64,000 nt of DNA, from NCBI GenBank assembly GCA_963805065.1, contig CAWDSS010000017.1, forward strand, positions 64,726 to 128,725, read 5' to 3'. The position numbers and the translations under genes are program-made. The notes beneath the pieces are model-generated. The model was not told the origin of the DNA. It saw only the letters and a program-made list of their open reading frames with translations, and ran no database searches. Positions 20,543 to 55,020 of the stretch are shown one piece after another (position 1 is the first letter of the stretch; every line of letters begins with the position of its first letter). This DNA comes from Candidatus Omnitrophota bacterium. Its GTDB lineage: Bacteria > Omnitrophota > Gorgyraeia > Gygaellales > Profunditerraquicolaceae.

Positions 20543-22419
20543 TTTAAATCGGTTATAAATATCCTGCCGGAATCATCGGCTCCTTCGTCTGGCCTGCAAA
20601 TCATATTATTGCGAAAATCAAAAAAACCTATTCTTAATTCGTAATCCTGCTTGAGTAAATCACCCGGAATTTTAATCCTGTAGATGTCTTTAAATATCTG
20701 CCCTTCCTGCCAGCTATTCGTGGGGGAAATCCTGTAGCAAATTGGCATAAATTTCCTCAGTACCAAAGCACCGTTTCCATCTACAACGTCAAGAAAAATA
20801 TTGATATCTTTATCCGTATGCTTGAGAGAATGCCAGTAAAAAACAGCCTCCAAAATACCCTCTTTAGCGGGGGCGCTTATTTCATATCCCATCAGCTGGA
20901 TTTCATTATCTATGCTGATTCCGCTTTTATGCTGCAGGTCCGCGGGCACCTCCTGCACGGATTTAGATAGTACATATTTGGCAGGGGCGCCCTTCTGGAA
21001 TAAAACTATCGAATCAAGCATATCCTGCGCCTGGAAGTCTCCTTCCGATAGAAGATTCCGAATATTCTTATAGTTTTCCGGCCCATAAAATGACCTGAAC
21101 GTTAAGAAATCATTAAAATCAATCAAAGCATATTGCACGTCTTTCGGCAATTCATATCTTTTACTTGATATCGTATAATATCCCATATAAACATGGTGAA
21201 AAGAATAAAGACGGGCCCTATGCGACAGGTGGGATAGAAATTCAAATGTTGTAACCACCGATGCATCTTTGGGGATTTTAGCTAATAACGAATCTTTGTA
21301 TATATCCAGGTAGCCTTTCTTATAAAGGCCTATATTCCGCAATGCTGCAAAATGAGGACCCATAAATATATTGGCCGTCAATGCTATGGCTAATAGGCAA
21401 ATTTTAAGGCATATCTGGTAATTCTTAATCCACTTATTCTTCAACAAAAATTGCACTGCGAATATGAAGGCAAAAAATACGAACGGGATTATTTCTGCTG
21501 TATAGTGGTAGAAAATCGTCAATTCTGTAAACCTTGCCGAAATTATGTGCTGGAGAAAAAAAGGCAAAGCCGGGATTAACCCCAGAGGGGCCAATAATGG
21601 CAAAAAAGAAACGGGGAAGAAAATACTAAAAAGGTAATTAAGGCTTTGCGTCCTGAATAGTAATTTAATAAATAGACCGGGGTGCATTAAAAGGTTTAAT
21701 AAAACGCGGGGGAGAGAATCGCCTAAATAACCGTATATCGCGGCAAACTGGATCGTATTATTATTAAAGTACGACATTAACGAAAGGGCAGCGAAGAAAT
21801 AAACCGTTCCTAAAAAGATGGGCGTCAGTATCCATTTCAACTTGCGTTTATTAAAGAATGCCAGGGCCCCAAACATTATAATTGCCAAGGGTATATTTTC
21901 CTGGCAGAGCATGGATAATATGGCAAATATTAAGAAAGCCGTAAAAGAGGATGACACATAATAATAAATGGTAAAGGCTAGGAAGAATGTGGCAAATACT
22001 GTAGGGTGGAATTCGTACAGGTTAGTATAACCCAATGAAGGATAAAAAAGATAAACCGCGCTGATAACCAATGCCCAGCTATTGCCTATTAAACGCCTCG
22101 CCAATAGATACAGCGGGATAGCGCTAAAACCGAGGGCTATCGTTTGTAACAAAAGCAGGGTTATCGGATGGCTGAATATCATATAGAGCGGGACAGCGAA
22201 GAACATAATTAAATGCATGTGATTACCCAAGAATGGTATTCCCAGAATAGAATTAAATATTGAGCCATGCATCATATTCCATACAGCCAGGTCATGGACC
22301 GCCAAATCAAAATCATTATAAGAAAATGAATTGAATTTCATTATGCTGATTAAGCCGAAATAAAATATGTAGGCTAAAACCAGAATTGCCATAATTGACC
22401 TGCTTGTTTGTTTTTTCAT
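20539..22419 (-). CDS. DUF2079-family polytopic membrane protein with C-terminal extracytoplasmic domain
   Basis: 626 aa. YNDFDLAVHDLAVWNMMHGS...LGNHMHLIMFF...LLLLQTIALGFSAIPLYLLARR matches my memory of DUF2079. About 12 TM helices plus a ~200-aa soluble tail. Confidence 0.55.
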   Translation of the reverse strand: MKKQTSRSIMAILVLAYIFYFGLISIMKFNSFSYNDFDLAVHDLAVWNMMHGSIFNSILGIPFLGNHMHLIMFFAVPLYMIFSHPITLLLLQTIALGFSAIPLYLLARRLIGNSWALVISAVYLFYPSLGYTNLYEFHPTVFATFFLAFTIYYYVSSSFTAFLIFAILSMLCQENIPLAIIMFGALAFFNKRKLKWILTPIFLGTVYFFAALSLMSYFNNNTIQFAAIYGYLGDSLPRVLLNLLMHPGLFIKLLFRTQSLNYLFSIFFPVSFLPLLAPLGLIPALPFFLQHIISARFTELTIFYHYTAEIIPFVFFAFIFAVQFLLKNKWIKNYQICLKICLLAIALTANIFMGPHFAALRNIGLYKKGYLDIYKDSLLAKIPKDASVVTTFEFLSHLSHRARLYSFHHVYMGYYTISSKRYELPKDVQYALIDFNDFLTFRSFYGPENYKNIRNLLSEGDFQAQDMLDSIVLFQKGAPAKYVLSKSVQEVPADLQHKSGISIDNEIQLMGYEISAPAKEGILEAVFYWHSLKHTDKDINIFLDVVDGNGALVLRKFMPICYRISPTNSWQEGQIFKDIYRIKIPGDLLKQDYELRIGFFDFRNNMICRPDEGADDSGRIFITDLK

Positions 22420-22436
22420 GCTTTCAGGATTCTAAC

Positions 22437-22484
22437 TAAAAAGAAAGCCCCTGTAAATATGAGATAAGGACATTTTACAGGGGC
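22437..22484 (-). terminator. Rho-independent terminator
   Basis: Minus strand reads GCCCCTGTAAA-16 nt loop-TTTACAGGGGC followed by TTTCTTTTTAG, 15 nt after the stop at 22500. Confidence 0.7.
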
Positions 22485-22499
22485 TCGCTTTCCGTTACC

Positions 22500-22739
22500 T
22501 TATCTCTTTTTTTTCTTGCCGCCTCTTTTCATCTTAGCGCAAGAGATATCGCCTTTCTTGTCTAAGAAATAAAGGTAGCCTTCTTTTCTCTTGATACCAA
22601 CCTTGGCCACCTTCTTGGGGCTACCTCCTTTTTTGGTGCCTCTTGCCATCTTAGCGCAAGAAACATCGCCTTTCTTGTCAATATAATAGAGGTAGCCTTT
22701 CTGCCTCTTGATGCCCAGCTTTACTAATTTTTCTGCCAT
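22500..22739 (-). CDS. Small lysine-rich protein made of two 39-aa repeats
   Basis: 79 aa. (V/A)K(L/V)GIKR(Q/K)(K/E)GYLY(Y/F)(I/L)DKKGD(V/I)SCAKM(A/K)RG occurs twice (117-nt DNA period). Strong SD GGAAGGGGGTGA and its own terminator. Confidence 0.7.
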   Translation of the reverse strand: MAEKLVKLGIKRQKGYLYYIDKKGDVSCAKMARGTKKGGSPKKVAKVGIKRKEGYLYFLDKKGDISCAKMKRGGKKKKR

Positions 22740-22773
22740 TCTTGTGTCACCCCCTTCCGTTTGTTATTTTATT

Positions 22774-23595
22774 TTAAGAGCCTACTTTAACCGGCTCCAA
22801 AATTTGTTTTAAAGTTGCCGCGGCTGATAACACTGCCAGATAACTTGTCTTGGGATTATTAGGATGAATAACGTTTTCGGTCCTGGCGGTAATTTTACCG
22901 CAGTCAGATTCAATTTCTATTTCGTGAATATTGTTGGTTACATTCGGTGAGGCAATTATACGCACAAGCGTATCTATCGGCCCAATTCCGGCGATACTCA
23001 ATGTTACCGCTACGTTAATATTCTGCGGAAACGCCCTTATGGCTGTCATGGCGTTACCTTCAAAAATAACGGTTTCCTCCGAGATATTATCCAACCTGAT
23101 CTGTCTTTTCAATACGTAAGGATTGCCTAAAAACGCCTTCGCAGGTTTCTTGGTAGTCAGGGTAACTTTGTTAATTTTGCCTACGGAGGCTGCCTTTAAA
23201 CCGTCAATGCCGCATATGGCACCCGAAGGAATAAAAATATGCGCATTTTTTTCTTCGGCAAACAGGAATAATTCTTTGTAATTCTCAACAATGCCCCCTA
23301 CACTTAAAATCATTATGTCCTTGGAAAGCGCAAGAGTTTTTTTGATTATCTCTACCACACTATCCGGTTTAGTAGCCTCAATAATCAAATCTGACTTATT
23401 GATTAAGCTTTCAAGATTTAGAACCGTCAACTTTTGATTATTAAGATTATGCGCCAAACTGTAGGCCTTTTCCATATCGATATCAAAAATTCCTGATAAC
23501 TGCGCTTTTTGTGAGAATTCTTTGGTAATGTAACTGGCCAGAGAAGAGCCTATAGCACCACATCCTACAATTCCTACTTTTAATAACTTTGGCAT
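22774..23595 (-). CDS. nadX: L-aspartate dehydrogenase
   Basis: VGIVGCGAIG, FIPSGAICGIDGLKA, FPQNINVAVTL and NNPKTSYLAV parallel the Thermotoga NadX motifs. I use ATG 23595 because the ORF-track start 23616 is a TTG inside a repeat. Confidence 0.8.
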   Translation of the reverse strand: MPKLLKVGIVGCGAIGSSLASYITKEFSQKAQLSGIFDIDMEKAYSLAHNLNNQKLTVLNLESLINKSDLIIEATKPDSVVEIIKKTLALSKDIMILSVGGIVENYKELFLFAEEKNAHIFIPSGAICGIDGLKAASVGKINKVTLTTKKPAKAFLGNPYVLKRQIRLDNISEETVIFEGNAMTAIRAFPQNINVAVTLSIAGIGPIDTLVRIIASPNVTNNIHEIEIESDCGKITARTENVIHPNNPKTSYLAVLSAAATLKQILEPVKVGS

Positions 23596-23611
23596 ATGAA
23601 TTAACGTAAAA

Positions 23612-23706
23612 GTCAAAACGTAAAAATAAAAACTGCAACTTAAAACTAAAAACGTTTTAAGTTTTGCGTTGCAGTTTTGCGCTTTGAGTTTTTAGTTTTG
23701 AGTTTA
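23612..23706. repeat. Palindromic block of A/T-rich heptamer repeats at the panC/nadX junction
   Basis: (N)AAAAC(N) units on the left and GTTTT(N) units on the right, centred on AACGTT at 23651..23656. An 11-bp perfect stem AAAACTGCAAC/GTTGCAGTTTT is present. The block encodes the last ~15 aa and the stop of panC. Confidence 0.75.
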
Positions 23707-26151: not shown

Positions 26152-26209
26152 TTTTTACTTTTGCCTTTAAACTTTTAACTTTTGGCTTTTTCCTTTTAAC
26201 TTTTACTTA
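26152..26209. repeat. Tandem A/T-rich heptamers (plus strand CTTTTNN) at the dapB/dapL junction
   Basis: tactttt gccttta aactttt aactttt ggctttt tcctttt aactttt acttaac. Includes the dapB stop codon. Confidence 0.7.
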
Positions 26210-27886: not shown

Positions 27887-28688
27887 AGTATTCTCCTTTA
27901 TGGACTATCCTTACTTTACCTTCCAGCCAGACTTCCCTAAAACTTCTACCCAGTTTTTTAAAAAATACCCGTAATAATTCATTACTTTTAGTCTGCACCT
28001 GCACTTTACTAACAGCCCTTGTCTTTAAGGCAAAAATCAGGGCTGCCGCTACTGACCCAGTCCCACAGGCAAGCGTCTCATCTTCCACTCCTCTTTCGTA
28101 TGTGCGTATGGCAATTAAATTGTCTTTCAGCACTTCTACAAAATCTACGTTTGTGCCTCGGGGAGAAAATTTATGATGATAGCGTATTGCCTGGCCTATC
28201 TCATCAACATCTATATCTTTAAGCCCTTCTACGAATATTACGGCATGAGGAACGCCTGTATCAATGAAATTAATTTTAATATTCCTCTTATTAACTTGCA
28301 GGGGGATATCTAATTTAAGGTCCCTGGGATTTGTTAGTTTTATTTTTACATCGCCATTATTGATATAAGATTCAATAATTCCAACTTTGGTTTCGATTCT
28401 TGGGTTCTGGGTTCTAGGTTTTAGGTTCTTGCTTAGCCAAAAGGCAACGCACCTTGCCCCATTACCGCACATTTCAGCCTCTGAACCGTCGGCATTGAAG
28501 ATGCGCATTTTGATATCGGCAAGCCCAGATTTCTCTAAAAGCAATAAACCATCTGCTCCTATTCCATATTTCCTATCGCATATTTTCTTAGCTAAAGCAG
28601 TTGGGTTCTTGATTTTATTACCCCTGTTATCGACAATCACAAAGTCATTACCGGAAGCAACCATTTTGCTGAATTTAAGTTTTTGCAT
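27879..28688 (-). CDS. dapF: Diaminopimelate epimerase
   Basis: ASGNDFVIVDN and both catalytic Cys motifs (MCGNGARC, ACGTGSVAAA). Confidence 0.93.
   Translation of the reverse strand: MQKLKFSKMVASGNDFVIVDNRGNKIKNPTALAKKICDRKYGIGADGLLLLEKSGLADIKMRIFNADGSEAEMCGNGARCVAFWLSKNLKPRTQNPRIETKVGIIESYINNGDVKIKLTNPRDLKLDIPLQVNKRNIKINFIDTGVPHAVIFVEGLKDIDVDEIGQAIRYHHKFSPRGTNVDFVEVLKDNLIAIRTYERGVEDETLACGTGSVAAALIFALKTRAVSKVQVQTKSNELLRVFFKKLGRSFREVWLEGKVRIVHKGEYYV
28395..28429. repeat. Tandem heptamers (plus RGGTTCT, i.e. AGAACCY on the coding strand) inside dapF
   Basis: gattctt gggttct gggttct aggtttt aggttct. Encodes KNLKPRTQNPRI. Confidence 0.8.
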
Positions 28689-28689
28689 T

Positions 28690-29958
28690 TTATATTTTAG
28701 CCAGAAACCTGGGTATTATTTCGTTTTTAACCAGATCCTCGCGGGTTTCTCTCTTCCTGATTACAAACGCCCTGTTTTTGACAACCATTACCTCTTGGGC
28801 TTTTAGCCTGGAATTATAATTACTGGACATACTAAAGCCATATGCCCCGGAACTCATAATAGCCAAGTAATCGCCTTCTTTGACTTTAGGCAGCTTTCTG
28901 TCTTTAGCAAAGAAATCAGCGCTTTCGCAAATTGGACCTACTATATCTACTCTCTCGATGCTCTTTGCTCGATGCTCGATGCTCGTAGGCAAAATCTGAT
29001 GGTATGCATCGTATAAAGCAGGCCTGATTAAATCATTCATCCCTGCGTCTACGATTATAAATTCCTTTTTAGGAGTCCTTTTAATGTATAAAACTTTTGT
29101 CACGAGTATGCCGGCATTGCCAATAATAAACCTTCCGGGCTCCATGATAATGCGTAGTCTTGTTTCTTTAAGTAACGCTAAGACTCTTTGAGCGAATTTC
29201 TGGGCAGTTTGAGGCGTTTCTTTATTATAAACTATTCCTAATCCTCCTCCGATATTAAGATATTCCAGAGTAATGCCCTTGTGCCTTAATTTGCCTATGA
29301 AATCCACTATTTTATTAATAGCGCAAATGTAGGGCGCCCCTTCAGTTATCTGGGAACCTATATGTATATGCAGCCCCGAAATCTTTAAATTAAAAAACCT
29401 ATCGCGCATTAACAGGATATCGTATGCACTTTTAAAATCTATCCCGAATTTATTGGTAAGTTTTCCCGTCGTGATATATTTGTGGGTTTTTGGCTCTACA
29501 TCCGGATTGATGCGTATTGCTACTCTTACAATCTTGTTTAGTTTCCTGGCTATGCGGTTAATGTTTTCTAATTCAGGCAGTGATTCTACGTTGAAAAACA
29601 GGATTCCCCTTCTTATCGCTTCTTCAATTTCTTTGTCTGTTTTCCCTACTGAAGCATAAACGATTCTGCTTGCAGGACAGCCTGCTTTAATTGCGCAAAA
29701 GAGCTCTCCCCCTGAAACAACATCCAGGCCTGCGCCTCTTTGAACCAGCGTCCTAAGGATAGCTAAATTAGAATTGGCTTTAACCGAATAGCAAATTAAA
29801 GGTTTAATCTGCCTGAAGGCATCTGTTAGCTTGTTAAAGTGGTCGATAATAGTCTGATAGCTATAGATATAAAGAGGCGTCCCGAATTCTTTAGCCAGTG
29901 CCTCTACTTTTACCTGTTCACAAAAAAGTTGATTATTCCTATATTTAAATTCGTGCAT
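28690..29958 (-). CDS. lysA: Diaminopimelate decarboxylase
   Basis: CYSVKANSNLAIL (PLP Lys), NIGGGLGI, GPICESADFF. Confidence 0.95.
   Translation of the reverse strand: MHEFKYRNNQLFCEQVKVEALAKEFGTPLYIYSYQTIIDHFNKLTDAFRQIKPLICYSVKANSNLAILRTLVQRGAGLDVVSGGELFCAIKAGCPASRIVYASVGKTDKEIEEAIRRGILFFNVESLPELENINRIARKLNKIVRVAIRINPDVEPKTHKYITTGKLTNKFGIDFKSAYDILLMRDRFFNLKISGLHIHIGSQITEGAPYICAINKIVDFIGKLRHKGITLEYLNIGGGLGIVYNKETPQTAQKFAQRVLALLKETRLRIIMEPGRFIIGNAGILVTKVLYIKRTPKKEFIIVDAGMNDLIRPALYDAYHQILPTSIEHRAKSIERVDIVGPICESADFFAKDRKLPKVKEGDYLAIMSSGAYGFSMSSNYNSRLKAQEVMVVKNRAFVIRKRETREDLVKNEIIPRFLAKI
28954..28988. repeat. Tandem heptamers CTCGATG inside lysA
   Basis: ctcgatg ctctttg ctcgatg ctcgatg ctcgtag. 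Encodes PTSIEHRAKSIER. Confidence 0.8.
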
Positions 29959-31330: not shown

Positions 31331-31372
31331 TTTTTCCTCTTTTAGTTTTGCGTTCTATCCAGAATGAACCTT

Positions 31373-31428
31373 AGTTTTGCGTTTTTCCTTTTGCGTTTTA
31401 CTTTTACCTTTTTACTTTTACCTTTTAT
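31373..31428. repeat. Tandem A/T-rich heptamers at the argG/argH junction
   Basis: agttttg cgttttt ccttttg cgtttta cttttac cttttta cttttac cttttat. TTAGTTTTGCGTT also occurs at 31342..31354. Includes the argG stop. Confidence 0.75.
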
Positions 31429-32613: not shown

Positions 32614-33003
32614 CTAAGAACAGCCTCCCGAGCTAGGTTGGTTATCACCAATGTTCATATGGCTGACTCTACCGTCCCCTCCGTTTCTTGTTGCCTGGCC
32701 ACAACCGGTAGAAAAAACCGCGTAATTCCAATCAATATTGCCCGTAGATGGTAGTGAAAGCTTTAGATGGGTATTAATACTTCCAATATTAGTATCGCTC
32801 CCGGAACTAGGATAATATCCATTCGAATCCAAAGAATAAGCCTTTTCTGCTACTTGGATACTCTTAAGATTAGCATTGGCTTCACTATTAGCTACATTCT
32901 CTTTAGCAGACATCAAATAACCTATACTCAGAGTTGCAAGAACGCCCATAATTACAACCGTAATCAACAGCTCCTGCATTGTAAAACCCTTTTTGCCAAG
33001 CAT
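32614..33003 (-). CDS. Type IV pilin-like protein embedded in the arg operon
   Basis: MLGKKG|FTMQELLITVVIMGVLATLSIG has a prepilin leader, Gly-1 and Glu+5. A C-terminal Cys pair (GCGQ...GGCS) resembles a pilin D-region. Strong SD AAGGAGAGG. Confidence 0.75.
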   Translation of the reverse strand: MLGKKGFTMQELLITVVIMGVLATLSIGYLMSAKENVANSEANANLKSIQVAEKAYSLDSNGYYPSSGSDTNIGSINTHLKLSLPSTGNIDWNYAVFSTGCGQATRNGGDGRVSHMNIGDNQPSSGGCS

Positions 33004-33026: not shown

Positions 33027-33941
33027 TTATTTCAATAGCTTAATAAGTATTGCTTTTTGCACATGCAGTCTATTTTCTGCCTGATCAAAAACCACGGAAT
33101 GCCTACTCTCCATAACCTCATCAGTTATCTCCTGGCCCCTATGTGCAGGCAAGCAATGCATAATCAAGGCGTTATCCTTAGCAAAGCTTACCAATTTGCT
33201 GTTAACCTGGAATCTCTTGAACACTTTTTCGCGTTTAGCCGCTTCCTCCTCCTGGCCCATACTTGCCCAAACATCCGTGTAAATTACATCTGATCCTTTT
33301 ACTGCCATTACAGGATCATTAAATAAATTTAGGGAGGCCTTTGTGTGTTTGGCAATAGCCTTTGCTTCTTTTACAACTGATTTTTGAGGCTCATATTCCT
33401 TAGGAGTTGCCACATTCATATTTACGCCGCATTTAGCACAAGCATAAAGCAAAGAATTACAGACATTATTTCCATCGCCCACATAACTTAAGGTTAACCC
33501 TTTCAATTTTTTGAATTTCTCTCTTATGGTGTATAAATCCGCTAACGCCTGACAGGGGTGCTCAAAATCGGATAAGCCGTTAATTACTGGCTTATCCGAA
33601 TATTTCGCCAACTCTGAAACATTCTTATGTTCAAATGTCCTTAAGACTACAACATCTGCATATCTTGAAAGCGTTTTAGCCACATCCTCGATGGATTCTC
33701 TAACTCCTAAATTTATTTCATTAGGAGCCAGGTACAAGGAATTTCCACCCAACTGATACATACCCACTTGAAAAGAAACCCTGGTTCTATTAGAAGGCTT
33801 CTGGAAAATTAATACCAGTGACTTACCAGACAAGGCCCTGTTAAACTTTGCCTTATTTTTCTTAAGCTGGTCAGTTAAATCAAATATATTTTCTATTTCT
33901 GCAGTAGTTAAATCTTTAATAGATATGAGGTTTTTTTTCAT
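33027..33941 (-). CDS. argF: Ornithine carbamoyltransferase
   Basis: FQKPSNRTRVSF and HCLPAHRGQE motifs. Confidence 0.95.
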   Translation of the reverse strand: MKKNLISIKDLTTAEIENIFDLTDQLKKNKAKFNRALSGKSLVLIFQKPSNRTRVSFQVGMYQLGGNSLYLAPNEINLGVRESIEDVAKTLSRYADVVVLRTFEHKNVSELAKYSDKPVINGLSDFEHPCQALADLYTIREKFKKLKGLTLSYVGDGNNVCNSLLYACAKCGVNMNVATPKEYEPQKSVVKEAKAIAKHTKASLNLFNDPVMAVKGSDVIYTDVWASMGQEEEAAKREKVFKRFQVNSKLVSFAKDNALIMHCLPAHRGQEITDEVMESRHSVVFDQAENRLHVQKAILIKLLK

Positions 33942-33943
33942 TT

Positions 33944-34006
33944 TGCTTTCAGCTCTCAGCCTTCAGCTTTCAGCTGATGACTGACAGCTGATGACTGAAA
34001 GCTAAA
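33944..34006. repeat. Nine tandem heptamers (AGCTTTC... then AGCTGAT/GACTGAA) across the argD stop / argF start
   Basis: tgctttc agctctc agccttc agctttc agctgat gactgac agctgat gactgaa agctaaa. The two halves are partly inverse-complementary. Encodes the argD C-terminus FQSSAVSHQLKAEG*. Confidence 0.8.
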
Positions 34007-35167
34007 CACGCTGTCCAATATGTTAATGGTCTTATCAATCTCTTTTTTGGTTATATTCAATGCGGGCATTAACCGAAGCACCTTATCGTGCGTGCAATTA
34101 ATCAATAAACCCAAAGTCAAGCATTTTTCCACTACAGGCTTTCCTTCGGTATCTAATTCAATGCCGGCCATTAATCCTATTCCTCTTACTTCTCTGATAA
34201 TTTTGTATTTATTTTTTAATGCGTTCAATTTCATAAAAAGATACTCTCCTGACTTCTGCGCGTTGTTAAGAAGCTTCTCTTTTTGTATCGCAGTCAATAC
34301 TGCAAGCGCTGCCTTGCATATTACAGGGCCGCCGCCGAATGTGGAAGCATGCATACCAGGCCCTAGTGTATCTGAAATCTCATTTTTGGCTACCATTACA
34401 CCTATCGGTAATCCTCCTCCGAGGGCCTTAGCTAAGGTCATAATGTCCGGGGTTATCCCATAATGCTGGTAACAAAAGAATTTGCCTGTCCTGCCCACGC
34501 CTGTCTGGACTTCATCTACAATTAAAAGCAATTTTTTTTCATCGCAGATCTTCCTTAAAGATAAAACAAACTCTTTGCTTGCCACGTTTATGCCGCCTTC
34601 GCCCTGGATTAATTCCAGCATTATGGCTACGGTCTTGTCGGTTATTGCTTTTTTAACTTCCTCTATATCATTGAACTTAACCGTCTTAAAACCTTCTGGC
34701 AGGGGCTCAAAACCACTCTGATATTTTTTCTGTCCTGTTGCAGCCAGTGCAGCAAGGGTTCTGCCATGAAAAGAATTTTCAAAAGTTATAATTTCAAATC
34801 TTCCCTTGCCGAATTTACGGCTGAACTTTATTGCCGCCTCATTTGCCTCAGCTCCCGAATTACAAAAAAATACTTTACCGGGAAATGTCCGGTAAATTAT
34901 CTCCTTGGCCAATTTTGCCTGAGGTATGTGATAATAATTATTCGGTATAAATATAAGTTTGGAAATCTGGTCGCGTACTGCCTGCATAACCTTAGGATGG
35001 CAATGTCCTAAATTACCCACTCCCCAACCGGGGAAAAAATCCAGGTAAGCTTTTCCTTTAACATCCCAAAGTTTTGAGCCTTTCCCTTTAACAAATACCA
35101 GGGGAATCTTGGTATAGGTTGGCATTATATTTTCTTGATAACTTTGTAGGACTTCTTCTATTTTCAT
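33956..35167 (-). CDS. argD: Acetylornithine aminotransferase
   Basis: DEVQTGVGRTGK and TLAKALGGGLP (PLP Lys) motifs. Confidence 0.93.
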   Translation of the reverse strand: MKIEEVLQSYQENIMPTYTKIPLVFVKGKGSKLWDVKGKAYLDFFPGWGVGNLGHCHPKVMQAVRDQISKLIFIPNNYYHIPQAKLAKEIIYRTFPGKVFFCNSGAEANEAAIKFSRKFGKGRFEIITFENSFHGRTLAALAATGQKKYQSGFEPLPEGFKTVKFNDIEEVKKAITDKTVAIMLELIQGEGGINVASKEFVLSLRKICDEKKLLLIVDEVQTGVGRTGKFFCYQHYGITPDIMTLAKALGGGLPIGVMVAKNEISDTLGPGMHASTFGGGPVICKAALAVLTAIQKEKLLNNAQKSGEYLFMKLNALKNKYKIIREVRGIGLMAGIELDTEGKPVVEKCLTLGLLINCTHDKVLRLMPALNITKKEIDKTINILDSVFSFQSSAVSHQLKAEG

Positions 35168-35176
35168 TTTTAAAAT

Positions 35177-35234
35177 AAAGGGGACGTTTCTATTTTTCCT
35201 CTAAACTGGAGACGTTAAAAATAGAAACGTCCCC
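35177..35234 (-). terminator. 64-nt hairpin element, copy 2 (between argB and argD)
   Basis: Same arms as copy 1 (AAAGGGGACGTTTCTATTTTT / AAAAATAGAAACGTCCCC). The loop also contains GGAGACGTT, and the minus strand continues TTTATTTTAAAA-ATG(argD). Confidence 0.6.
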
Positions 35235-35244
35235 ATTTTTTCAC

Positions 35245-35279
35245 AGTTTTGCCTTTTTACTTTTACGTTTTGAGTTTAT
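35245..35279. repeat. Tandem A/T-rich heptamers at the argB stop
   Basis: agttttg ccttttt actttta cgttttg agtttat. Includes the argB stop at 35276. Confidence 0.65.
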
Positions 35280-39518: not shown

Positions 39519-40313
39519 TTAATATTTCACCTTCATCAGGCATAATCCGCAGGCGGGCGCAGTGGGGCCGGTTGAGTTCCTGTCTTTACTATGCAGTAGC
39601 CTCCTTAGGTGACCCTTTTTAAACCTACCCCTGCCTATTTCTATGAGGGTACCGACTATGCTTCTGGCCATATTATACAGGAAACCATCTGCTTCTATAT
39701 CAATAACAATTAAAGAATCTTTGAACCTAGAACCAAAACCAGAGAACCTAGAACCCAATTTTCTAACACTTATCTTCTTTATGGTACGTATAGTATTTTT
39801 AGCACTACTGCCGCTAGCACAAAATGCCTTAAAATCATGCTTACCCAATAAACTTCTGGCTTCCCGCTGCATTAAGCTGATGTTCAATGCATAAGAACAA
39901 AAATAGGCCTGCTTCCTCAAAAGTGCAGATGGATAGTTACGGTTTAATATAACATAACGGTAAACTTTGGATTGCGCATCAAACCGGCTATGAAAATCAA
40001 GCCTTGATTCCTCTATTTTAGAAATAGAGATGTCTTTGGGTAAAAGGCAGTTCAACGCCTTTTGCAGTTTCTTTACGCCAATGTAAGAATTTGTAAGAAA
40101 ATTCGCTACCTGAGCCTGGGCATGGACACCTGCATCGGTCCTTCCTGCGGAAATTAACCTGACTTTTTCTTGCAGGATTTTGCGTAGAGCTTTTTCTATT
40201 ATCTCCTGGATGGCCTTCTTAGAACGGTGGGATTTAACTAGTGAATCATTCTGAACCTGCCAACCACAATAATCGGAGCCGTCATATTCTATTTCGAGCT
40301 TGAGATTAGGCAT
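39519..40313 (-). CDS. truA: tRNA pseudouridine(38-40) synthase
   Basis: SAGRTDAGVHA catalytic motif. 264 aa. Confidence 0.93.
   Translation of the reverse strand: MPNLKLEIEYDGSDYCGWQVQNDSLVKSHRSKKAIQEIIEKALRKILQEKVRLISAGRTDAGVHAQAQVANFLTNSYIGVKKLQKALNCLLPKDISISKIEESRLDFHSRFDAQSKVYRYVILNRNYPSALLRKQAYFCSYALNISLMQREARSLLGKHDFKAFCASGSSAKNTIRTIKKISVRKLGSRFSGFGSRFKDSLIVIDIEADGFLYNMARSIVGTLIEIGRGRFKKGHLRRLLHSKDRNSTGPTAPACGLCLMKVKY
39722..39756. repeat. Tandem heptamers AGAACCN inside truA (same family as in dapF, opposite orientation relative to the gene)
   Basis: tgaacct agaacca aaaccag agaacct agaaccc. Encodes GSRFSGFGSRFK. Confidence 0.8.
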
Positions 40314-42002: not shown

Positions 42003-43054
42003 TTACAAATTCTTCACGACCTCGTCTCCTACTTCTTCGGTGGAATATCCCATCTTTCCTGCTGCTAGAGATTTCAATTTCTCGTTAACGATCTTAATCA
42101 CCGCATTCTCTACTGATTTACCGGCATCGAGTTCGCCTAAATTCTCCAGCAACATACCCAATGCGCAAATAGCAGCTAAGGGATTGATAACATTTTTACC
42201 GGTGTATTTGGGAGCGCTTCCGCCGATAGGCTCAAACATGGAAACGCCGGAAGGATTAATATTTCCTCCTGCGGCAATGCCCATTCCACCCTGAATCATC
42301 GCTCCTAAATCCGTAATAATATCGCCGAACATATTATCGGTAACAATCACATCAAACCATTCCGGATTCTTAACAAACCACATGGTAGTAGCATCGACAT
42401 GCGCGTAATCAGTGGTTACATCCGGGTATTCCTTCGCTACCTCATTAAACGTCCTCTCCCACAAATCCCAGGCAAATGTCAGGACATTGGTTTTTCCGCA
42501 AAACGTAAGTTTTTTCTTTCTCCTGCGTTTACGCGTAAATTCAAATGCATAGCGGATACAGCGCTCAACACCAATTCGCGTATTATAAGAAATCTGCATT
42601 GCTACTTCGTCTTTAGTGCCTTTATTCTTAAATTCACCCATGCCTTTATAAAGGCCTTCGGAATTCTCCCGCACCACTACGAAATCAATATCCTCTGGTC
42701 TCTTTATCTTTCAGGGGACAAAAGGCAGCGTTATAAAGTTTGACCGGCCGAAGATTAATATACTGATCCAGGGAAAACCTTAAGTTTTAACAGAATCCCG
42801 GTCTCAAGAATCCCCGGCTTTACGTCCGGATGGCCTATTGCTCCCAGATAAATCGCCGAATACTTTTTTAGCTCCGCTATATCGCTATCATCCAGGGTCT
42901 TACCTGTTTTTAGAAAACGCTCGCCTCCAAAATCAAATATCTTGGTTTCGTATTCAAATTTAAATTTTTTTCCGGCCGCCGTTAATACTTTAAGCCCCTC
43001 CCTGATTACCTCAGGGCCGGTGCCGTCTCCCGGTATAACAGCTATCCTAAACAT
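42003..43054 (-). pseudogene. leuB: 3-isopropylmalate dehydrogenase, interrupted by two +1 frameshifts
   Basis: The N-terminal part (42755..43054, IAVIPGDGTGPEV) and the C-terminal part (42003..42677, VRENSEGLY...GSAPKYTGKNVINPLA) are in frames offset by 2. The third frame between them reads [26 protein letters not shown] without a stop. Confidence 0.75.
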
Positions 43055-45694: not shown

Positions 45695-45700
45695 ATTGGA

Positions 45701-45815
45701 AAGGTAAAAGTTAAAAGCAAAAAGGTAAAAGTTAGAAGTAAAAGTCAAAAGCATAAAAATACTTTTAATTTTTTACTTGTACTTTTTACTTTTGGCTTTT
45801 TACTTTTTACTTAAC
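45701..45815. repeat. ~115-bp imperfect palindrome built from A/T-rich heptamers (TAAAAGN / NCTTTTA)
   Basis: taaaagt taaaagc aaaaagg taaaagt tagaagt ... actttta atttttt acttgta cttttta cttttgg cttttta cttttta. Lies between the fabF stop and the leuC start. Confidence 0.8.
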
Positions 45816-48240: not shown

Positions 48241-49168
48241 TTTCCACTCTCCCGATAAGAATATCCTCTTTCTTCTCTATATTTGCTACCTGCGCGCCTG
48301 CGTCGATACGGCGCATTAGCCCCTTTAAGACTTTGCCCGGACCAAACTCTATAAAACTTTTCACCCCTTGCGAGAGCATAAATCTCATGGAATCTTCCCA
48401 AAGGACGCTGGATGCTACCTGCTTTATCAGGTTTTCTTTTATTTCCAATGCAGAAGTTGCAGGTTTAGCCGTTACGTTACAGATTACGGCAGTGCCCGCA
48501 GATTTTATTGTTACATTGTCGAATTCTTTAGCCAGCTTTATTGTTGCCCCGCTCATAAAGGAAGAATGAAATGCGCCGCTCACTTCAAGCACTATAGCCA
48601 TTCTTGCACCGGATTCTTTAGCCAAGGCACAAGCTGCTTCAATCTGTTTTAGGCCCCCGGAAATCACTATCTGGCCGGGGCAATTAAGATTGGCTATTTC
48701 GGTATTAGTCTTTGCACAAATTTCTCTTACTTTATCTGTCTTGAGGCCGATAATAGAGAGCATTTTGCCCGGTCTCTTAAGTGCTTCTTCCTCCATGAAT
48801 TCTCCGCGCCGCCTGACCAGATAAACTGCATCAGCGAAATTCATGGCTCCTGCAGCAACTAAGGCTGAATACTCTCCCAAACTTAATCCGGCAACAAAAG
48901 CCGGCTGCGGCATATCTACAGTTGCCTGCGATTTAAACGCTTCTAGCGCCGCAATGGTTATAGTCAGTACTGCCGGCTGGCAGTTCTGAGTCTTGATGAG
49001 TTCCTCTTGCGGTCCTTCAAACAATAGCTTGCTTATTGAAAAACCCAGGACTTTATCTGCTGTGTCAAAGACCGCTTTACTTTGAGGAAAGGTATCGTAT
49101 AGATCCTTTCCCATTCCTATATATTGGCTGCCTTGTCCAGCAAATAAATATGCAACTTTTTGGCTCAT
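48224..49168 (-). CDS. fabD: Malonyl-CoA:ACP transacylase
   Basis: [12 protein letters not shown] and [12 protein letters not shown]. Confidence 0.93.
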
Positions 49169-49194
49169 TTAGCTATCAATACTAATCTCGCTCG

Positions 49195-49227
49195 GTAGGG
49201 ACAGTCCCCTTCGGGGACAATCCCTAC
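49195..49227 (-). other. GC-rich hairpin between fabH and fabD
   Basis: GTAGGGA-ca-GTCCCC-ttcg-GGGGAC-aa-TCCCTAC with no U-run. Possibly an mRNA processing or stability element. Confidence 0.45.
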
Positions 49228-49239
49228 TGCAGTACATAT

Positions 49240-50217
49240 TTACCATTTGATAACGCAGGCGCCCCAAACTAATCCGGCGCCAAAAGCATCCAGAAGGACA
49301 ATATCGCCTTTCTTCACCCTGCCTTCCTTAACTGCTTCACACAGCGCTGTGACAGTAGAAGCTGAAGACATATTGCCATATTTCTCGATATTAAGGTAAA
49401 TCTTCTCTTCAGGCAGCCCTAACTTTTTCGCCATAGCCAGGATTATGCGTATATTGGCCTGATGCGGAATGACCAAATCGATATCTTTACATTCCAGGTT
49501 TGCCATTTTTAATGCTGTTTGTGCTGCCTCGGTCATAAGGACAACTGCAAACTTAAATAATTCGTTGCCCTGCATTTTTATATAATGCAGCCGCTTATCC
49601 AGCGTTTCATGGGAGGCGGGATTTCTTGAACCGCCGCCGGGAACCATTAATAAATCTGCTTTTGAACCGTCGCTGCCCAGATACGTGGAAAGAATTCCGC
49701 CTGATTTTACTTCTGCCAAAACTGCGGCACCTGCACCGTCTCCGAATAAAACGCAGGTATTCCTGTCTTTCCAGTCAGTTATCGAAGAAAGCACTTCTGT
49801 GCCTATTACTAATGCATTTTTGTAAGTACCTCTGGCAATAAACTGCTGGGCGATGGTTAAGGCATAAACAAAACCAGAACAGGCTGCGCTTATGTCAAAA
49901 CAAACTGCGTTACTTGCGCCAAGCGCATTTTGCAGGAAACAGGCTACCGACGGAAACGCCATATCCGGAGTGATAGTAGCAACGATTATCAAATCTATGT
50001 CAGCCGGCTTTAATTTAGCATCCTCCAAAGCATTCCTGGCTGCCTTTATCGCCAAATCAGAGGCTGCTTCTGTTTTAGCTGCCAGGCGCCTTTCTTTAAT
50101 GCCTGTGCGCGTGGTAATCCACTCATCGGAGGTATCCACCATTTTCTCCAAATCCGCATTGGTCAAAACCTTTTTGGGGAGGTATTCTCCCACTCCGATT
50201 ATTCCGACTTTTTTCAT
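49240..50217 (-). CDS. fabH: Beta-ketoacyl-ACP synthase III
   Basis: ISAACSGFVYAL, PHQANIRI, GNMSSAS. Confidence 0.95.
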   Translation of the reverse strand: MKKVGIIGVGEYLPKKVLTNADLEKMVDTSDEWITTRTGIKERRLAAKTEAASDLAIKAARNALEDAKLKPADIDLIIVATITPDMAFPSVACFLQNALGASNAVCFDISAACSGFVYALTIAQQFIARGTYKNALVIGTEVLSSITDWKDRNTCVLFGDGAGAAVLAEVKSGGILSTYLGSDGSKADLLMVPGGGSRNPASHETLDKRLHYIKMQGNELFKFAVVLMTEAAQTALKMANLECKDIDLVIPHQANIRIILAMAKKLGLPEEKIYLNIEKYGNMSSASTVTALCEAVKEGRVKKGDIVLLDAFGAGLVWGACVIKW

Positions 50218-51814: not shown

Positions 51815-52299
51815 TTGGTATTACGCAACTTCCTCTTAAGCGCCTTCTCCACAAAATCCGGCACAAAACAAGACAAATTTGCACCCAAAGAAGCTGCTTC
51901 CTTTAAAAGCTTAGAGGAAAGATAGCTGAAAGATTCCTGGGGCATAAGAAAGATTGTTTCTATATCTGGAGAGAATTTCCTGTTTGTCAATGCCATCTGA
52001 AACTCGTATTCAAAGTCGGAAATCATGCGTAAACCCCGGATTAAAACCTTGGCCTTCTGTTTATGCGCATAATCCACTACCAGCCCATCAAAGTTCGTAA
52101 TCACAATTCCCTTTAAATCCCCTGTTGCCTTCTTAAGCATGGAGACTCTTTCTTCAACGCTGAATAAAGGCTTTTTATGGGGATTATGAGCTACTGCTAC
52201 AATAAGCTCAGGGTAGATTTCCCTTGCTCTTTTTATAAGATCAATATGTCCGTAGGTTACCGGGTCAAAAGTCCCGGGGTATATAGCAATTTGGCACAT
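51811..52299 (-). CDS. coaD: Phosphopantetheine adenylyltransferase
   Basis: IYPGTFDPVTYGHIDLI motif. Confidence 0.93.
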   Translation of the reverse strand: MCQIAIYPGTFDPVTYGHIDLIKRAREIYPELIVAVAHNPHKKPLFSVEERVSMLKKATGDLKGIVITNFDGLVVDYAHKQKAKVLIRGLRMISDFEYEFQMALTNRKFSPDIETIFLMPQESFSYLSSKLLKEAASLGANLSCFVPDFVEKALKRKLRNTK

Positions 52300-52930
52300 C
52301 TTGTTTCCTGTAAAACGACAATATTGTATCGCCGTAACTGGCTTCTTTGATTAAGGTTAGCTTTTCAACCTGGCTTGGCAGCAGATCTTTCTTAAAATGC
52401 TGCACTACTATCAAACCATAGGGCGCTAATATATCATAAGCACCCAGGGTTTGCAAGGTTTTTTTTGCCACAGAAGGTGGCACACCAACCCCTCCGATAA
52501 GGTTGGGTGTTGCCGCAGAAGGCGGCACACCAACCTCTCCGATAAGGTTGGGTGTTGCCCGTACCTTTTGATACGGAGCGTCCATAAAGATAATATCGAA
52601 TGCTTTCTTGTCTTTATGAAGCTTGTGTATAACTTTTTCTACTTCCAAGGGTAACAAGGCGAAGTTACTTATCTTCAAAACCTCCATATTCTCCTTTATT
52701 ATTGCCAGGCAATCGCGGTCGTTTTCCACTAAGACAGCTTCCTTTGCTCCCCTTGACAAAGCCTCTATTCCTACAGCGCCTGAACCGGCAAACAACTCTA
52801 AAAAAGACAAACCCTCAATATCGCCCAGGATATCAAATATTGCTTTTCTTACCTTATCCTGTGTAGGCCTGATTGCCTTAGGCATCTTCAATAGCCTGCT
52901 CTTGTATTTTCCCGATGTTATTCTCATCAA
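52265..52930 (-). CDS. rsmD: 16S rRNA (guanine966-N2)-methyltransferase with a 30-aa tandem-repeat insertion
   Basis: LELFAGSGAVGIEALSRGA and FMDAPY motifs. At 221 aa it is ~35 aa longer than I recall for typical RsmD. Confidence 0.85.
   Translation of the reverse strand: MMRITSGKYKSRLLKMPKAIRPTQDKVRKAIFDILGDIEGLSFLELFAGSGAVGIEALSRGAKEAVLVENDRDCLAIIKENMEVLKISNFALLPLEVEKVIHKLHKDKKAFDIIFMDAPYQKVRATPNLIGEVGVPPSAATPNLIGGVGVPPSVAKKTLQTLGAYDILAPYGLIVVQHFKKDLLPSQVEKLTLIKEASYGDTILSFYRKQDVPNCYIPRDF
52468..52557. repeat. 45-bp tandem duplication (2 units), each unit hairpin-forming, in frame within rsmD
   Basis: Units 52468..52512 and 52513..52557 differ at 3 positions. Each contains GCACACCAACC...GGTTGGGTGTTGC. 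Encodes ATPNLIGEVGVPPSA-ATPNLIGGVGVPPSV. Confidence 0.85.
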
Positions 52931-55020
52931 CCTACCACCATTAACTTCTCATATTCCGGGAATCTCTGCAGAAGCTTCTGCTTTAACCCCAGGTTCTGCT
53001 TAGCCTCTAAGCCAGGATCCAGCTCTATAAGCTTTATTGCCTCATCCCGTGCCATCTTTAACAGCTTCATCTGCGTCAAAGGATTTGCGATTTTCAGTTC
53101 AGCTAAGCCATGCTGCCTGCTGCCGAAAAATTCACCCGGACCCCTGATTTTTAAGTCCTCCTCGGCAATACGGAATCCGTCATTGAATTGAACCATGGTT
53201 TGAATACGCGCTTTGGCTTCTTCGGTCGCTGCGTCAGCAACAAGAATACAGACTGACTCAAGCCCACCTCTTCCTACCCTGCCGCGTAATTGATGCAATT
53301 GGCTTAAACCGAAACGCTCTGCATGTTGGATAATCATACAGGTGGCATTGGGTATGTCAATGCCGACTTCCAGAACTGTTGTAGAAATCAACATATCCAA
53401 ATCCATATTCCGAAAATCCGACATTACCTGGTCTTGTTCCTCCTGTTTTAACCTGCCGTGAATCAGGCCTAATCTAAATTCTTTGAATTCTCCTGCCTTT
53501 AATTCACTGAATGCCTTTTTTACGCCTGCAATATCCAGTTCGTATGATTCCTCGATAACCGGATAAATTACATACACCTGCCTTCCTTGTTTTAATTCAT
53601 TCCTTGCTAAGCCGTAAGCTTGCAATGCCTGTTCTTGGCTAAAATGCAATGTTTTAACAGGTAGCCTTCCTGCCGGAAGTTCATTAATAACAGAAATGTC
53701 CAGGTCCCCGTACAAAGTAATTGCCAGCGTGCGGGGGATAGGAGTTGCAGTCATGATTAATACATCGGGGTTAATGCCTTTTTTAGGCAATAATGCCCGC
53801 TGGCTGACCCCGAATTTATGCTGTTCATCAATTACCACCAGGCCTAAGTTCTTAAATCCAACTGACTCTTCCAACAAGGCATGAGTACCGATTACCAAAT
53901 CAATCCTTCCCTCTTTTGCCTCCTGCTGGATTTTTTGTTTTTCTTTTTTGTCAATGCTGCTGGTAAGCAGCGCTACCTTTATCTGCTTTTGCTGAAAGCT
54001 GAGAGCTGAAAGCTGAGAGCTGATTTTCTCGAAATGCTGTTTGGCTAATATCTCCGTAGGCACCATGAAGGCAGCCTGATATCCTCCTTGTATGGCAATC
54101 ATACAGGCAATATTCGCCACTACGGTTTTACCCGACCCCACGTCACCCTGCAAAAGCCTCTGCATTGCCTGTGGCCTTGCCATGTCCAGCTTTATTTCTT
54201 CAATTACTTTTTTTTGTGATTCTGTCAGTTTAAAGCTAAGGCAGTTTATGAAATCCTGCTTGAGCTTGCCTTCAACTTTGTGAACGATCCCGCTTTTATT
54301 TGCTTTTTTTAATTTTCGTAAAACTAGGGGTAACTGGAATACAAAGAATTCTTCAAAGGCTAGCCTTCGGTATGCCTGTTGTTGTATCTGGTGATCTTGC
54401 GGAAAGTGCATACTGATGATGCTCTTTGCCAGATTTAGTAAATCATTCCTCGACCTGATATCAAAGGGGAGGGAATCATTCACAAAGGGGAGATACTCAT
54501 CGGCTACGGATTTAATAATTTTACGCAAACTTCGCTGAGTCATGTTTTGGGGTAAAGTATAAACGGGGACGATCCTACCTATGCTAAGCGACTGATCTTT
54601 GTCTCCTGAAACAATTTCAAATTCCGGGGAACTCATCTGCAACCTGTTTGCATAACGTTCAACCTTTCCGTACAAAATTAGAGTATCTTTGACTTTAAAA
54701 TAATCCTTAAGGTAGGGCTGGTTAAACCACACGCAAGAAATTTTTCCACTATCATCCCCTACCGTTACTTCAATTATGCTAAACCCACGCCTTCTAAAAG
54801 AAGTGCGTGCATTTTTCGCCAAGACTTCTGCTTTTATGGTCTGGACCTGTCCTTCTTGAAGTTTGGATATCGGGCTAAATTTTGTGCGGTCTTCGTAGCG
54901 CCGGGGGAAATAATAAAAAAAATCCTCTATCACGCTAACGCCACTCTTTTCTAAAGCCTTGGCTCGCTTAGGCCCGATTCCTTTTAAATAACGGACCGGT
55001 GTATCCAGCGATTTTTTCAT
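52927..55020 (-). CDS. recG: ATP-dependent DNA helicase RecG
   Basis: LLQGDVGSGKTVVA, VVIDEQHKFGV, QLHQLRGRVGRG. 697 aa. Confidence 0.95.
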   Translation of the reverse strand: MKKSLDTPVRYLKGIGPKRAKALEKSGVSVIEDFFYYFPRRYEDRTKFSPISKLQEGQVQTIKAEVLAKNARTSFRRRGFSIIEVTVGDDSGKISCVWFNQPYLKDYFKVKDTLILYGKVERYANRLQMSSPEFEIVSGDKDQSLSIGRIVPVYTLPQNMTQRSLRKIIKSVADEYLPFVNDSLPFDIRSRNDLLNLAKSIISMHFPQDHQIQQQAYRRLAFEEFFVFQLPLVLRKLKKANKSGIVHKVEGKLKQDFINCLSFKLTESQKKVIEEIKLDMARPQAMQRLLQGDVGSGKTVVANIACMIAIQGGYQAAFMVPTEILAKQHFEKISSQLSALSFQQKQIKVALLTSSIDKKEKQKIQQEAKEGRIDLVIGTHALLEESVGFKNLGLVVIDEQHKFGVSQRALLPKKGINPDVLIMTATPIPRTLAITLYGDLDISVINELPAGRLPVKTLHFSQEQALQAYGLARNELKQGRQVYVIYPVIEESYELDIAGVKKAFSELKAGEFKEFRLGLIHGRLKQEEQDQVMSDFRNMDLDMLISTTVLEVGIDIPNATCMIIQHAERFGLSQLHQLRGRVGRGGLESVCILVADAATEEAKARIQTMVQFNDGFRIAEEDLKIRGPGEFFGSRQHGLAELKIANPLTQMKLLKMARDEAIKLIELDPGLEAKQNLGLKQKLLQRFPEYEKLMVVG
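53991..54025. repeat. Tandem heptamers GCTGAAA/GCTGAGA inside recG (same family as 33944..34006)
   Basis: gctgaaa gctgaga gctgaaa gctgaga gctgatt. Encodes SSQLSALSFQQ. Confidence 0.8.

Follow-up and report, generated by a model that had tools for sequence, protein, structure and literature searches.

What is the tandem repeat that forms the boundary between argD and argF, how did it come to lie there, and why does its unit recur inside recG? The locus was studied in a stretch of 64,000 nt of contig CAWDSS010000017.1 from a Candidatus Omnitrophota bacterium, which we call the window and in which essentially all genes lie on the − strand. The initial annotation, made from the sequence alone, had described nine phased heptamers that spanned the argD stop codon and reached to 3 nt from the argF ATG. 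The nine units and their position across the stop codon were recovered, and the distance from the array end to the ATG was corrected to 2 nt (33942–33943). On the + strand of 33944–34006 the units read TGCTTTC AGCTCTC AGCCTTC AGCTTTC AGCTGAT GACTGAC AGCTGAT GACTGAA AGCTAAA. The features at this junction were as follows.

33944–34006, − strand: palindromic heptamer-repeat element of nine units that forms the argD-argF boundary, with about 60 nt inserted where the related loci L107 and L108 have an ATGA overlap
33974–34006, − strand: 5′ arm on the mRNA (TTTAGCTTTCAGTCATCAGCTGTCAGTCATCAG), stop-free in every frame and translated as the ArgD tail
33944–33973, − strand: 3′ arm on the mRNA (CTGAAAGCTGAAGGCTGAGAGCTGAAAGCA), whose AGCTGAA-type units give the TGA now ending argD
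33956–33958, − strand: argD stop codon TGA inside the 3′ arm, with the argF ATG 14 nt downstream
33959–34003, − strand: repeat-encoded ArgD C-terminal tail SFQSSAVSHQLKAEG (residues 389–403), not in orthologues
33956–35167, − strand: argD, acetylornithine aminotransferase, Aminotran_3
33027–33941, − strand: argF, ornithine carbamoyltransferase (OTCace), with its ATG at 33939–33941

Tandem Repeats Finder (TRF) divided the element into 33945–33975 (period 7, 4.4 copies) and the abutting 33971–34003 (period 14, 2.4 copies, 94%). The two halves had been called inverse complements able to fold as a hairpin, and the fold agreed with this. The inverted arms (33941–33973 and 33974–34006) were 33 nt each and 73% complementary, without a spacer and with CAGCTG at the centre. 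The sense RNA folded at −36.2 to −38 kcal/mol (z = −5.9 to −6.6), and 0 of 200 shuffled sequences folded as well. Of the 63 nt of the element, 48 were translated as the 3′ end of argD, whose product ended in ...ILDSVFSFQSSAVSHQLKAEG with the TGA within the array. The TCAGCTN arm is stop-free and the AGCTGAA arm has a TGA; therefore, argD reads through the first arm, stops in the second and gains 14 unconserved residues. An independent assembly of the same organism (L001, Logan ERR10755942) started at window position 33973, which is the CAGCTG centre.

Relatives of ArgD (72–84% identity) were taken from 80 Candidatus Omnitrophota metagenome-assembled genomes (MAGs). In approximately 50 of 79 species, argD and argF overlapped by 1 or 4 nt or were separated by a gap of at most 4 nt, and ArgD ended 2–5 residues past ...IL..VL. 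The modal length of ArgD was 391 aa in 120 database orthologues, and ArgD of the nearest relatives had 389 aa. These were L107 and L108, in which ArgD was 88–89% identical and the gene order argD-argF-pilin-argG was that of the window. Their junction read GTATTGAAATGAAAA, in longer extent GTATTGAAATGAAAAAAG, with the 4-nt overlap ATGA. The window junction read GTGTTT, then AGCTTTCAG...CTGAAAGC, then AAAATGAAAAAAAA; the flanks of L107/L108 were kept and the palindrome of about 60 nt lay between them. This comparison indicated that a heptamer palindrome of about 60 nt was interposed into a formerly overlapping argD/argF junction, that the argD stop codon was replaced and that 14 residues were added.

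The sister species L104/L002 (UBA1562-like; 84%) carried the element at the same junction. The 5′ arm of L104 was identical to that of the window at 31 of 33 positions. The 3′ arm differed by one unit in number and also in unit order, and it was split by an insertion of about 270 nt. This inserted element (L104:6615–6890) consisted of GATTAC(A/G)GAGATT repeats with inverted CGCTGTAATC ends. A single gain of the junction element in the lineage of the window and L104 appeared likely from these sequences. Approximately 29 of the 79 species had repeat-rich argD/argF inserts that were sequence-unrelated between lineages, and many of them were heptamers followed by their own complements. Examples were CACGGAT...ATCCGTG (L009, L026), GTAAATC...GATTTAC (L017), TCCCAAT...ATTGGGA (L039, L043) and TAGTAGT (L013, L016).

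We considered whether selection maintains the hairpin as an RNA element of the arg operon. Such an element would hide the argF start unless argD is translated, or would set the argD:argF ratio through RNase III or transcript stability. The placement would suit this, because the strong hairpin ended 6 nt before the argF AUG and held the argD stop in its 3′ arm. In addition, the arm was conserved with L104 well above the neutral expectation. The sense strand folded better than the antisense strand (−36.2 vs −25.4 kcal/mol, with 4 vs 0 G-U pairs), and this advantage of 11 kcal/mol was a weak hint of RNA-level selection. The Shine-Dalgarno match of argF was weak (−3.5 kcal/mol, rank 34 of 62). However, weak matches were typical here (window median −4.05), and an unusually weak argF site as a sign of obligatory coupling was rejected because the value was average for the window. 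The species without any insert included the nearest relatives, the inserts of different lineages were unrelated in sequence, and the 3′ arm of L104 was interrupted. A set of 18 heptamer hairpins showed no sense-strand bias. Rfam gave no hits in the window at gathering thresholds; by E-value, only sub-threshold matches to generic hairpins (miRNA) were obtained at the site. A regulatory role of this kind was judged quite improbable. The argD-argF locus itself is probably neutral DNA. An intrinsic terminator or attenuator, that is, a GC-rich hairpin with a U-tract, was also rejected for the junction. Scans for terminators and promoters gave no prediction at the site, and the hairpin was followed by AGCAAAAUGAAAAAAAAC without a U-tract.

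The same unit family had been reported in frame inside recG, and five units were found there as reported.

52927–55020, − strand: recG, 697 aa (modal among orthologues)
53991–54025, − strand: five NTCAGCT units in recG, in frame, encoding ISSQLSALSFQ, between helicase motif Ia (PTEILAKQH) and the next beta-strand

The units read GCTGAAA GCTGAGA GCTGAAA GCTGAGA GCTGATT on the + strand and ATCAGCT CTCAGCT TTCAGCT CTCAGCT TTCAGCA on the sense strand. The recG array and the junction hairpin shared the 16-mer GCTGAGAGCTGAAAGC in opposite orientation. On the structure of T. maritima RecG (1GM5), the site again fell between motif Ia and the following strand. The recG array had no RNA structure (z = +0.34). 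The initial annotation had left it to an alignment with orthologues to decide whether the repeat-encoded peptides were peculiar to this genome, and the two genes gave different answers. The ArgD tail was not in orthologues, but the closest RecG orthologue carried ISSQLSALSSQ, which is nearly the peptide of the window. This meant that the recG array was old and stable, and not a recent or hypervariable insertion.

The site in RecG was periodic far beyond this pair. Heptamer translation fitted at least 8 of 11 residues in 59 of 120 orthologues, and other 11-residue windows reached a maximum of 7 of 11. At least eight different units were used, including ATCAGCT, ATCAGGT, GTCAGTT, AAATCCC and TCATGGT. 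The peptides had a 7-residue period, as expected of a heptamer translated in three frames: ISYQLSAISYQ from (ATCAGCT)n, IRYQVSGIRYQ from (ATCAGGT)n, VSCQLSVVSCQ from (GTCAGTT)n, KSQIPNPKSQ from (AAATCCC)n and SWFMVHGSWFM from (TCATGGT)n. A metagenome scan for recG gave 18 loci. Perfect arrays with identical boundaries were present in the DNA of three genomes, namely (ATCAGGT)4.9, (GTTCATG)5.4 and (GTCAGTT)5.0. Across species, the RecG-site units were point variants NTCAG[CGT]T of one another.

In Haemophilus, tracts of heptanucleotides give rise to phase variation (PMC8262952, PMC2651432), and the arrays might likewise be hypermutable contingency loci, in which gain or loss of a 7-nt unit would switch recG, or the ArgD tail and its coupling to argF, within populations. 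Because 7 is not a multiple of 3, a change of one unit in recG would be a frameshift. The unit number of the 3′ arm did differ between the window and L104, and the Logan assembly broke exactly at the centre of the palindrome. However, de Bruijn assembly is expected to break contigs at a 31-mer repeat. The window and L106 each had five units in recG, although third positions had diverged by approximately 45%. RecG was mostly 697 aa long in the 120 orthologues, with further classes of 689–691 and 704 aa; the lengths moved in steps of 7 residues and never by frameshifts. In addition, arrays of 4–5 units are short for high slippage rates, and their positions were loops and 3′ ends rather than promoters or 5′ coding regions. 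These results made switching of this kind very unlikely indeed.

A genome-wide scan for period 7 had been proposed, and a period-7 scan was run on the window and, with a TRF score of at least 40, on 930 kb from 90 Omnitrophota loci. The window held 13 period-7 arrays against 1.9 expected from third-order Markov shuffles, and 7 against 0.5 at period 14. The 930 kb held 77 period-7 arrays against 0 in shuffles, with lesser excesses at periods 14, 8 and 12. Arrays of at least three phased GCTGA/TCAGC units numbered 10 in 1.06 Mb and 0 in five shuffles. The survey gave 56 canonical heptamer units. Among 45 strictly defined arrays, 32 were inside long open reading frames (ORFs), 11 were at ORF ends and 2 were intergenic, so the location was not mainly intergenic. 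Their lengths peaked at 30–33 nt, and none measured 21–26 nt, although such arrays were detectable. The peak is as expected of one seed unit with microhomology and a further 21 nt. For 18 of 84 arrays, an inverted partner lay at most 90 nt away, compared with 2 in a reverse-only control. Period-7 arrays, at gene junctions and in frame in housekeeping enzymes, are a phylum-wide pattern in Omnitrophota. An assembly artefact was rejected, as in-frame arrays were seen again in MAGs that came independently from many studies and assemblers.

The claim that at least two heptamer families each occupy several loci also held, and three were found in the window. TCAGCTN/AGCTGAA occurred at 33944 and 53991; within the 64 kb these were its only two loci, and one copy was palindromic. 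AGAACCY occurred at 28403 in dapF, with its complement at 39723 in truA. AAAAGNN occurred at five junctions (23.6, 26.2, 31.4, 35.2 and 45.7 kb). In these families, every in-frame array of the window had a second locus with the same unit. The further arrays were as follows.

28403–28429, − strand: AGAACCY array in dapF, in frame (KNLKPRTQNPR), in a loop that also bears arrays in other species
39723–39755, − strand: GGTTCTR array in truA, in frame (GSRFSGFGSRF), the reverse complement of the dapF family
28954–28985, − strand: CATCGAG array in lysA, in frame (SIEHRAKSIE)
45700–45812, − strand: (AAAAGTA)n then (TACTTTT)n, a heptamer hairpin between fabF and an aconitase-family gene
23610–23705, − strand: (CAAAACT)n then (AGTTTTG)n, a heptamer hairpin across the 3′ end of panC
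26152–26206, − strand: (GTTAAAA)n, an A-rich array filling the junction of dapB and an aminotransferase gene
31371–31427, − strand: (GGTAAAA)n array at the argG 3′ end and argH junction

Sharing of units within genomes was observed in other species too. TCAGCTN formed CAGCTG-centred hairpins at the argF-argG junction of L030/L053, and L053 had an array of this family in DapF (FSFQLSALSSQL). In L102, two junction hairpins TAGTTCA...TGAACTA were found no more than 3 kb from the recG array (GTTCATG)5.4. In L103, an in-frame ACACGTC array lay 0.6 kb from a GTGTAAN...TTACACG hairpin. Unit pairs that differed by at most one position made up 18 of 126 same-genome pairs and 251 of 4715 between-genome pairs (Fisher p = 1.7e-4); this was supportive rather than decisive because the pairs were non-independent. 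The hairpin at the junction L101:8285–8392 was built of 10-nt units (TAAAAGAGGT... / AACTTCATAT...). This meant that the design of an array plus its inverted array was not strictly of period 7.

The same pattern was seen in other enzymes. The DapF loop carried AGAACCY in the window and TTTCAGC, AAGCCAA, GCCGCAC, AGAGAAC or AGGTGCC in other species, and the loop segment measured 45 residues in short forms and 51–52 in long forms. The ArgC loop carried AAAAGCG, AAGCTCC, AAAAGCC, AAAATTC, AAAGGTC, GTTCAGA and others, several of which scored 25/25 for periodicity. In the dapF and truA arrays, the unit that would create an in-frame stop was altered (in truA, a would-be TAG).

The arrays were then compared with the divergence of the surrounding genes. 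Between the window and L104, third positions of argD were 51% identical, and the match of the 5′ arm at 31 of 33 positions had P = 1e-7 at the synonymous rate and 0.007 at the overall nucleotide rate. In the tail codons, third positions were conserved in 11 of 11 cases, and both differences were non-synonymous. The recG arrays of the window and L106 were identical at 32 of 35 positions against 55% at third positions (P = 4e-6). The sole change within a unit was C/T at the variable first position. Since array identity exceeded that of synonymous sites, the arrays are old and were kept periodic at the DNA level and not at the protein level. This DNA-level conservation, together with the point-variant units at the RecG site, reads as the signature of concerted evolution.

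Based on these results, we favor, with somewhat more belief than doubt, the explanation that the element is a long-lived, self-homogenising heptanucleotide microsatellite in the form of a palindrome, produced by slippage and strand switching, filtered by reading frame and cross-talking between loci. It would date from a common ancestor with the UBA1562-like sister species and have arisen at the overlapping argD stop and argF start (ATGA). Replication slippage in a 7-nt register may have produced the TCAGCTN tract, and an intrastrand strand switch at a short palindrome such as CAGCTG may have produced the inverted arm. Repair of misalignments within the array would keep the units alike. This concerted evolution lets the shared unit drift, and therefore different heptamers occupy one site in different species. 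Occasional ectopic conversion or template switching between similar arrays may yield the genome-specific families. Selection would purge frameshifts and in-frame stops and leave largely neutral or selfish DNA. Because selection removes these, the survivors are at junctions, 3′ ends and tolerant loops, in 21-nt steps. The same process would have given the recG tract, an old array that lies in frame in a tolerant loop of the protein surface and whose length changes in multiples of 21 nt (7 residues). At the junction, a ribosome ending argD would melt the −36 kcal/mol hairpin and stop 14 nt from the argF AUG. Termination beside the argF ATG suggested that translational coupling was probably kept.

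Several observations weigh against this explanation. Stepwise slippage would have to traverse frameshifted alleles of dapF, lysA or recG, and slippage does not normally lengthen a proto-repeat of about 11 nt by +21 nt in one step. The ArgC segment had a constant 55 residues whether periodic or not, which looks like overwriting and not insertion. By pairwise distances, which do not settle the closer relative, L107/L108 were slightly nearer to the window than L104, and a single gain would then require unequal rates or a precise loss. Compared with L107, the junction element looked like a clean palindromic insertion of 60 nt, which would suit a mobile element too. Overall, the heptamer hairpins lacked a sense-strand bias (10 of 18), and selection at the RNA level was not supported by them. 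The unexplained +21 birth, the overwriting in ArgC and the clean insertion relative to L107 leave some probability to a mobile or templated-copy mechanism.

A mobile origin would make the element a very small palindrome that resembles repetitive extragenic palindromes (REP) and the hairpins formed by REP doublets (REPIN), miniature inverted-repeat transposable elements (MITE) or the small dispersed repeats of cyanobacteria. A block of about 60 nt, with arms that are heptamer arrays by chance, would have inserted at argD/argF; related copies or half-copies would lie in other junctions and, as multiples of 21 nt, in protein loops. In addition to the clean insertion, its terminal inverted ends, the argF-argG hairpin of L030/L053, the in-frame DapF array of L053 and the recurrence of families within genomes are consistent with this. 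The palindromes CCTGCCTGCCGGCAGGCAGG and GGGACTGTCCCC are clearly dispersed across Omnitrophota and nest in heptamer arrays. However, comparison with the empty L107/L108 site showed no target-site duplication, and a MITE was rejected on this ground despite the inverted ends. The copies had the unit in common and not a full-length consensus, and their unit number and order varied. At the RecG site, point variants at identical boundaries fitted concerted evolution in situ. No transposase, REP-associated tyrosine transposase (RAYT) or reverse transcriptase was found in the 53 of 62 window ORFs scanned against Pfam, which also counts against a mobile palindrome. On balance, mobility of this kind was considered unlikely.

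A further idea is that the arrays are not passive products of slippage but the output of dedicated or directed copying; strands might switch between nearby arrays that serve as templates, or an enzyme might act on a genome-specific heptamer. We regard this as doubtful. If true, it would write blocks of about 21–33 nt into junctions, overwrite tolerant loops and homogenise sequences across loci. It would then account for species-specific loop peptides in RecG, DapF, ArgC, LysA and TruA, and the arrays would in effect form a new class of self-propagating DNA of ultra-small size.

The microsatellite explanation was also compared with known repeats. Heterocystous cyanobacteria carry the short tandemly repeated repetitive (STRR) sequences STRR1–3, with the consensus units CCCCAGT, TTGGTCA and CAACAGT. 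No match to these consensus sequences was found among the 56 canonical Omnitrophota units, so the arrays are not STRR in the strict sense. They resembled STRR in having tandem 7-nt units and several families per genome, each at many loci and often between genes of one operon. They differed in belonging to another phylum, in that the strict arrays were mostly in frame in housekeeping genes and quantised near 32 nt, and in that approximately one-fifth were paired with their own reverse complement. PMC4692102 cites the STRR heptanucleotides of Calothrix, Nostoc and Anabaena as reference 39 and mentions the Nostoc pecE-pecF junction. It also cites Mrazek 2007 for an excess of heptanucleotide simple sequence repeats (SSRs) in bacteria, attributed to the polymerase. 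The same paper describes the heptameric SSRs GGGNATC and GGGGAYT of Xanthomonas and Nostoc and proposes polymerase slippage in a 7-nt register as their cause (Rehm et al. 2015, PMC4692102). The Omnitrophota arrays had the features of heptanucleotide SSRs, namely head-to-tail 7-nt units in at least three copies, an excess of period 7 and several multi-locus families. As in Xanthomonas and Nostoc, the excess was lineage-specific, the same genes were flanked in related species with varying length and sequence, and some arrays formed inverted pairs. However, the repeats of those genera are G-rich, G-quadruplex-capable and intergenic, whereas the Omnitrophota units were not G-rich, many were translated, and one site had differing heptamers across species.

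Like REP, bacterial interspersed mosaic elements and REPIN, the junction element was an imperfect palindrome of tens of nucleotides between co-directional operon genes, with a possible mRNA hairpin. REPs occur in hundreds of copies with a conserved full-length consensus, lack an internal period of 7 nt and have a RAYT transposase. In contrast, only the unit was shared here, the element overlapped coding sequence, and the scanned ORFs contained no RAYT. The phase-variable heptanucleotide tract of the Haemophilus influenzae HMW1A promoter (PMC8262952) was similar in its 7-nt tandem repeats, which slippage can change. Haemophilus tracts are long, are found in promoters or 5′ regions and vary from isolate to isolate, whereas the Omnitrophota arrays had 4–8 units, were located at 3′ ends, junctions or internal loops and kept their length between species. 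Their placement was thus not that of contingency SSRs. As a lead only, very small dispersed repeats such as CCTGCCTGCCGGCAGGCAGG, which nests in arrays of other Omnitrophota, resemble those of Nostoc. Elhai and co-workers are said to have described in 2008 small dispersed repeats of 21–27 nt in Nostoc, some of whose insertions preserved the frame.

No description of heptamer repeats in Omnitrophota was found in the literature searched, and we know of no report of site-conserved, unit-divergent, frame-quantised arrays inside housekeeping enzymes. The arrays extend the unexplained bacterial bias toward 7-nt microsatellites, seen in cyanobacteria and Xanthomonas, to an uncultivated phylum. They also offer a comparative system, in which one loop of an essential enzyme holds different perfect heptamers per species in 7-residue quanta and conservation is seen at synonymous positions of the arrays and not in the protein. 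Existing metagenomes allow direct tests of how very short coding repeats evolve in concert, of where the 7-nt register comes from and of the cross-talk between dispersed arrays. For MAG annotation, the arrays matter in that ORFs become longer, start and stop calls move, assemblies are interrupted and spuriously "variable" peptides appear.

Further observations were made on the dispersed palindromes. The perfect 20-nt palindrome CCTGCCTGCCGGCAGGCAGG was absent from the window and dispersed in other Omnitrophota (L007:7188, L045:5118, L069:8116, L082 recG, L087:2836 and L102:11290). It was often nested in heptamer arrays or in the same protein loops, where it added 7 residues, as xCRQAG/PARQAG in RecG P0059/P0060 and in DapF of L034. 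The palindrome GTAGGGATTGTCCCCGAAGGGGACTGTCCCTAC, of the GGGACTGTCCCC type, was present in the window at 49168–49240 between fabD-like (Acyl_transf_1) and fabH-like (ACP_syn_III) genes, and also at the argD-argF junctions of L042, L054 and L064 and after argG in L107. This type appears to be a second dispersed family that is not built of heptamers.

The neighboring arg junctions also varied. Between argB and argD (35167–35276) there was a spacer of 108 nt, where the nearest relative L107 had a 4-nt overlap. It contained the A-rich heptamers CAAAACG TAAAAGT AAAAAGG CAAAACT and then a hairpin GGGGACGTTTCTATTTTT...AAAAATAGAAACGTCCCC. A prepilin-type gene with the N-terminal GFTMQELLITVVIMGVLA (32614–33003, − strand) lay between argF and argG. 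L107 had an unannotated 140-aa gene at this position, and L030/L053 had no gene there and the TCAGCTN hairpin instead.

Three minor observations concerned other parts of the window. An rsmD-like ORF (52265–52930, − strand) held a 45-bp tandem repeat at 52465–52559 (2.1 copies, 94% matches) that encoded ATPNLIGEVGVPPSA / ATPNLIGGVGVPPSV in frame. The Pfam match to Cons_hypoth95 ended at residue 128, just before the repeat, and the rsmD-like gene of L102/L103 had perfect octamer arrays (GTTCTCGC)4.4. A gene of the isopropylmalate/isocitrate dehydrogenase family was broken at 42560–43054 (− strand), with three frames within approximately 100 nt. The pieces were an N-terminal one of 99 aa, a middle piece and a C-terminal one of 224 aa, with no heptamer arrays at the breaks; it is either a pseudogene or the result of assembly indels. 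Finally, the 354-nt gap at 22419–22774, which appeared intergenic, encoded a small peptide with an internal duplication (...KLGIKRQKGYLYYIDKKGDVSCAKM... twice), followed by a terminator-like hairpin, and is probably an unannotated small gene.

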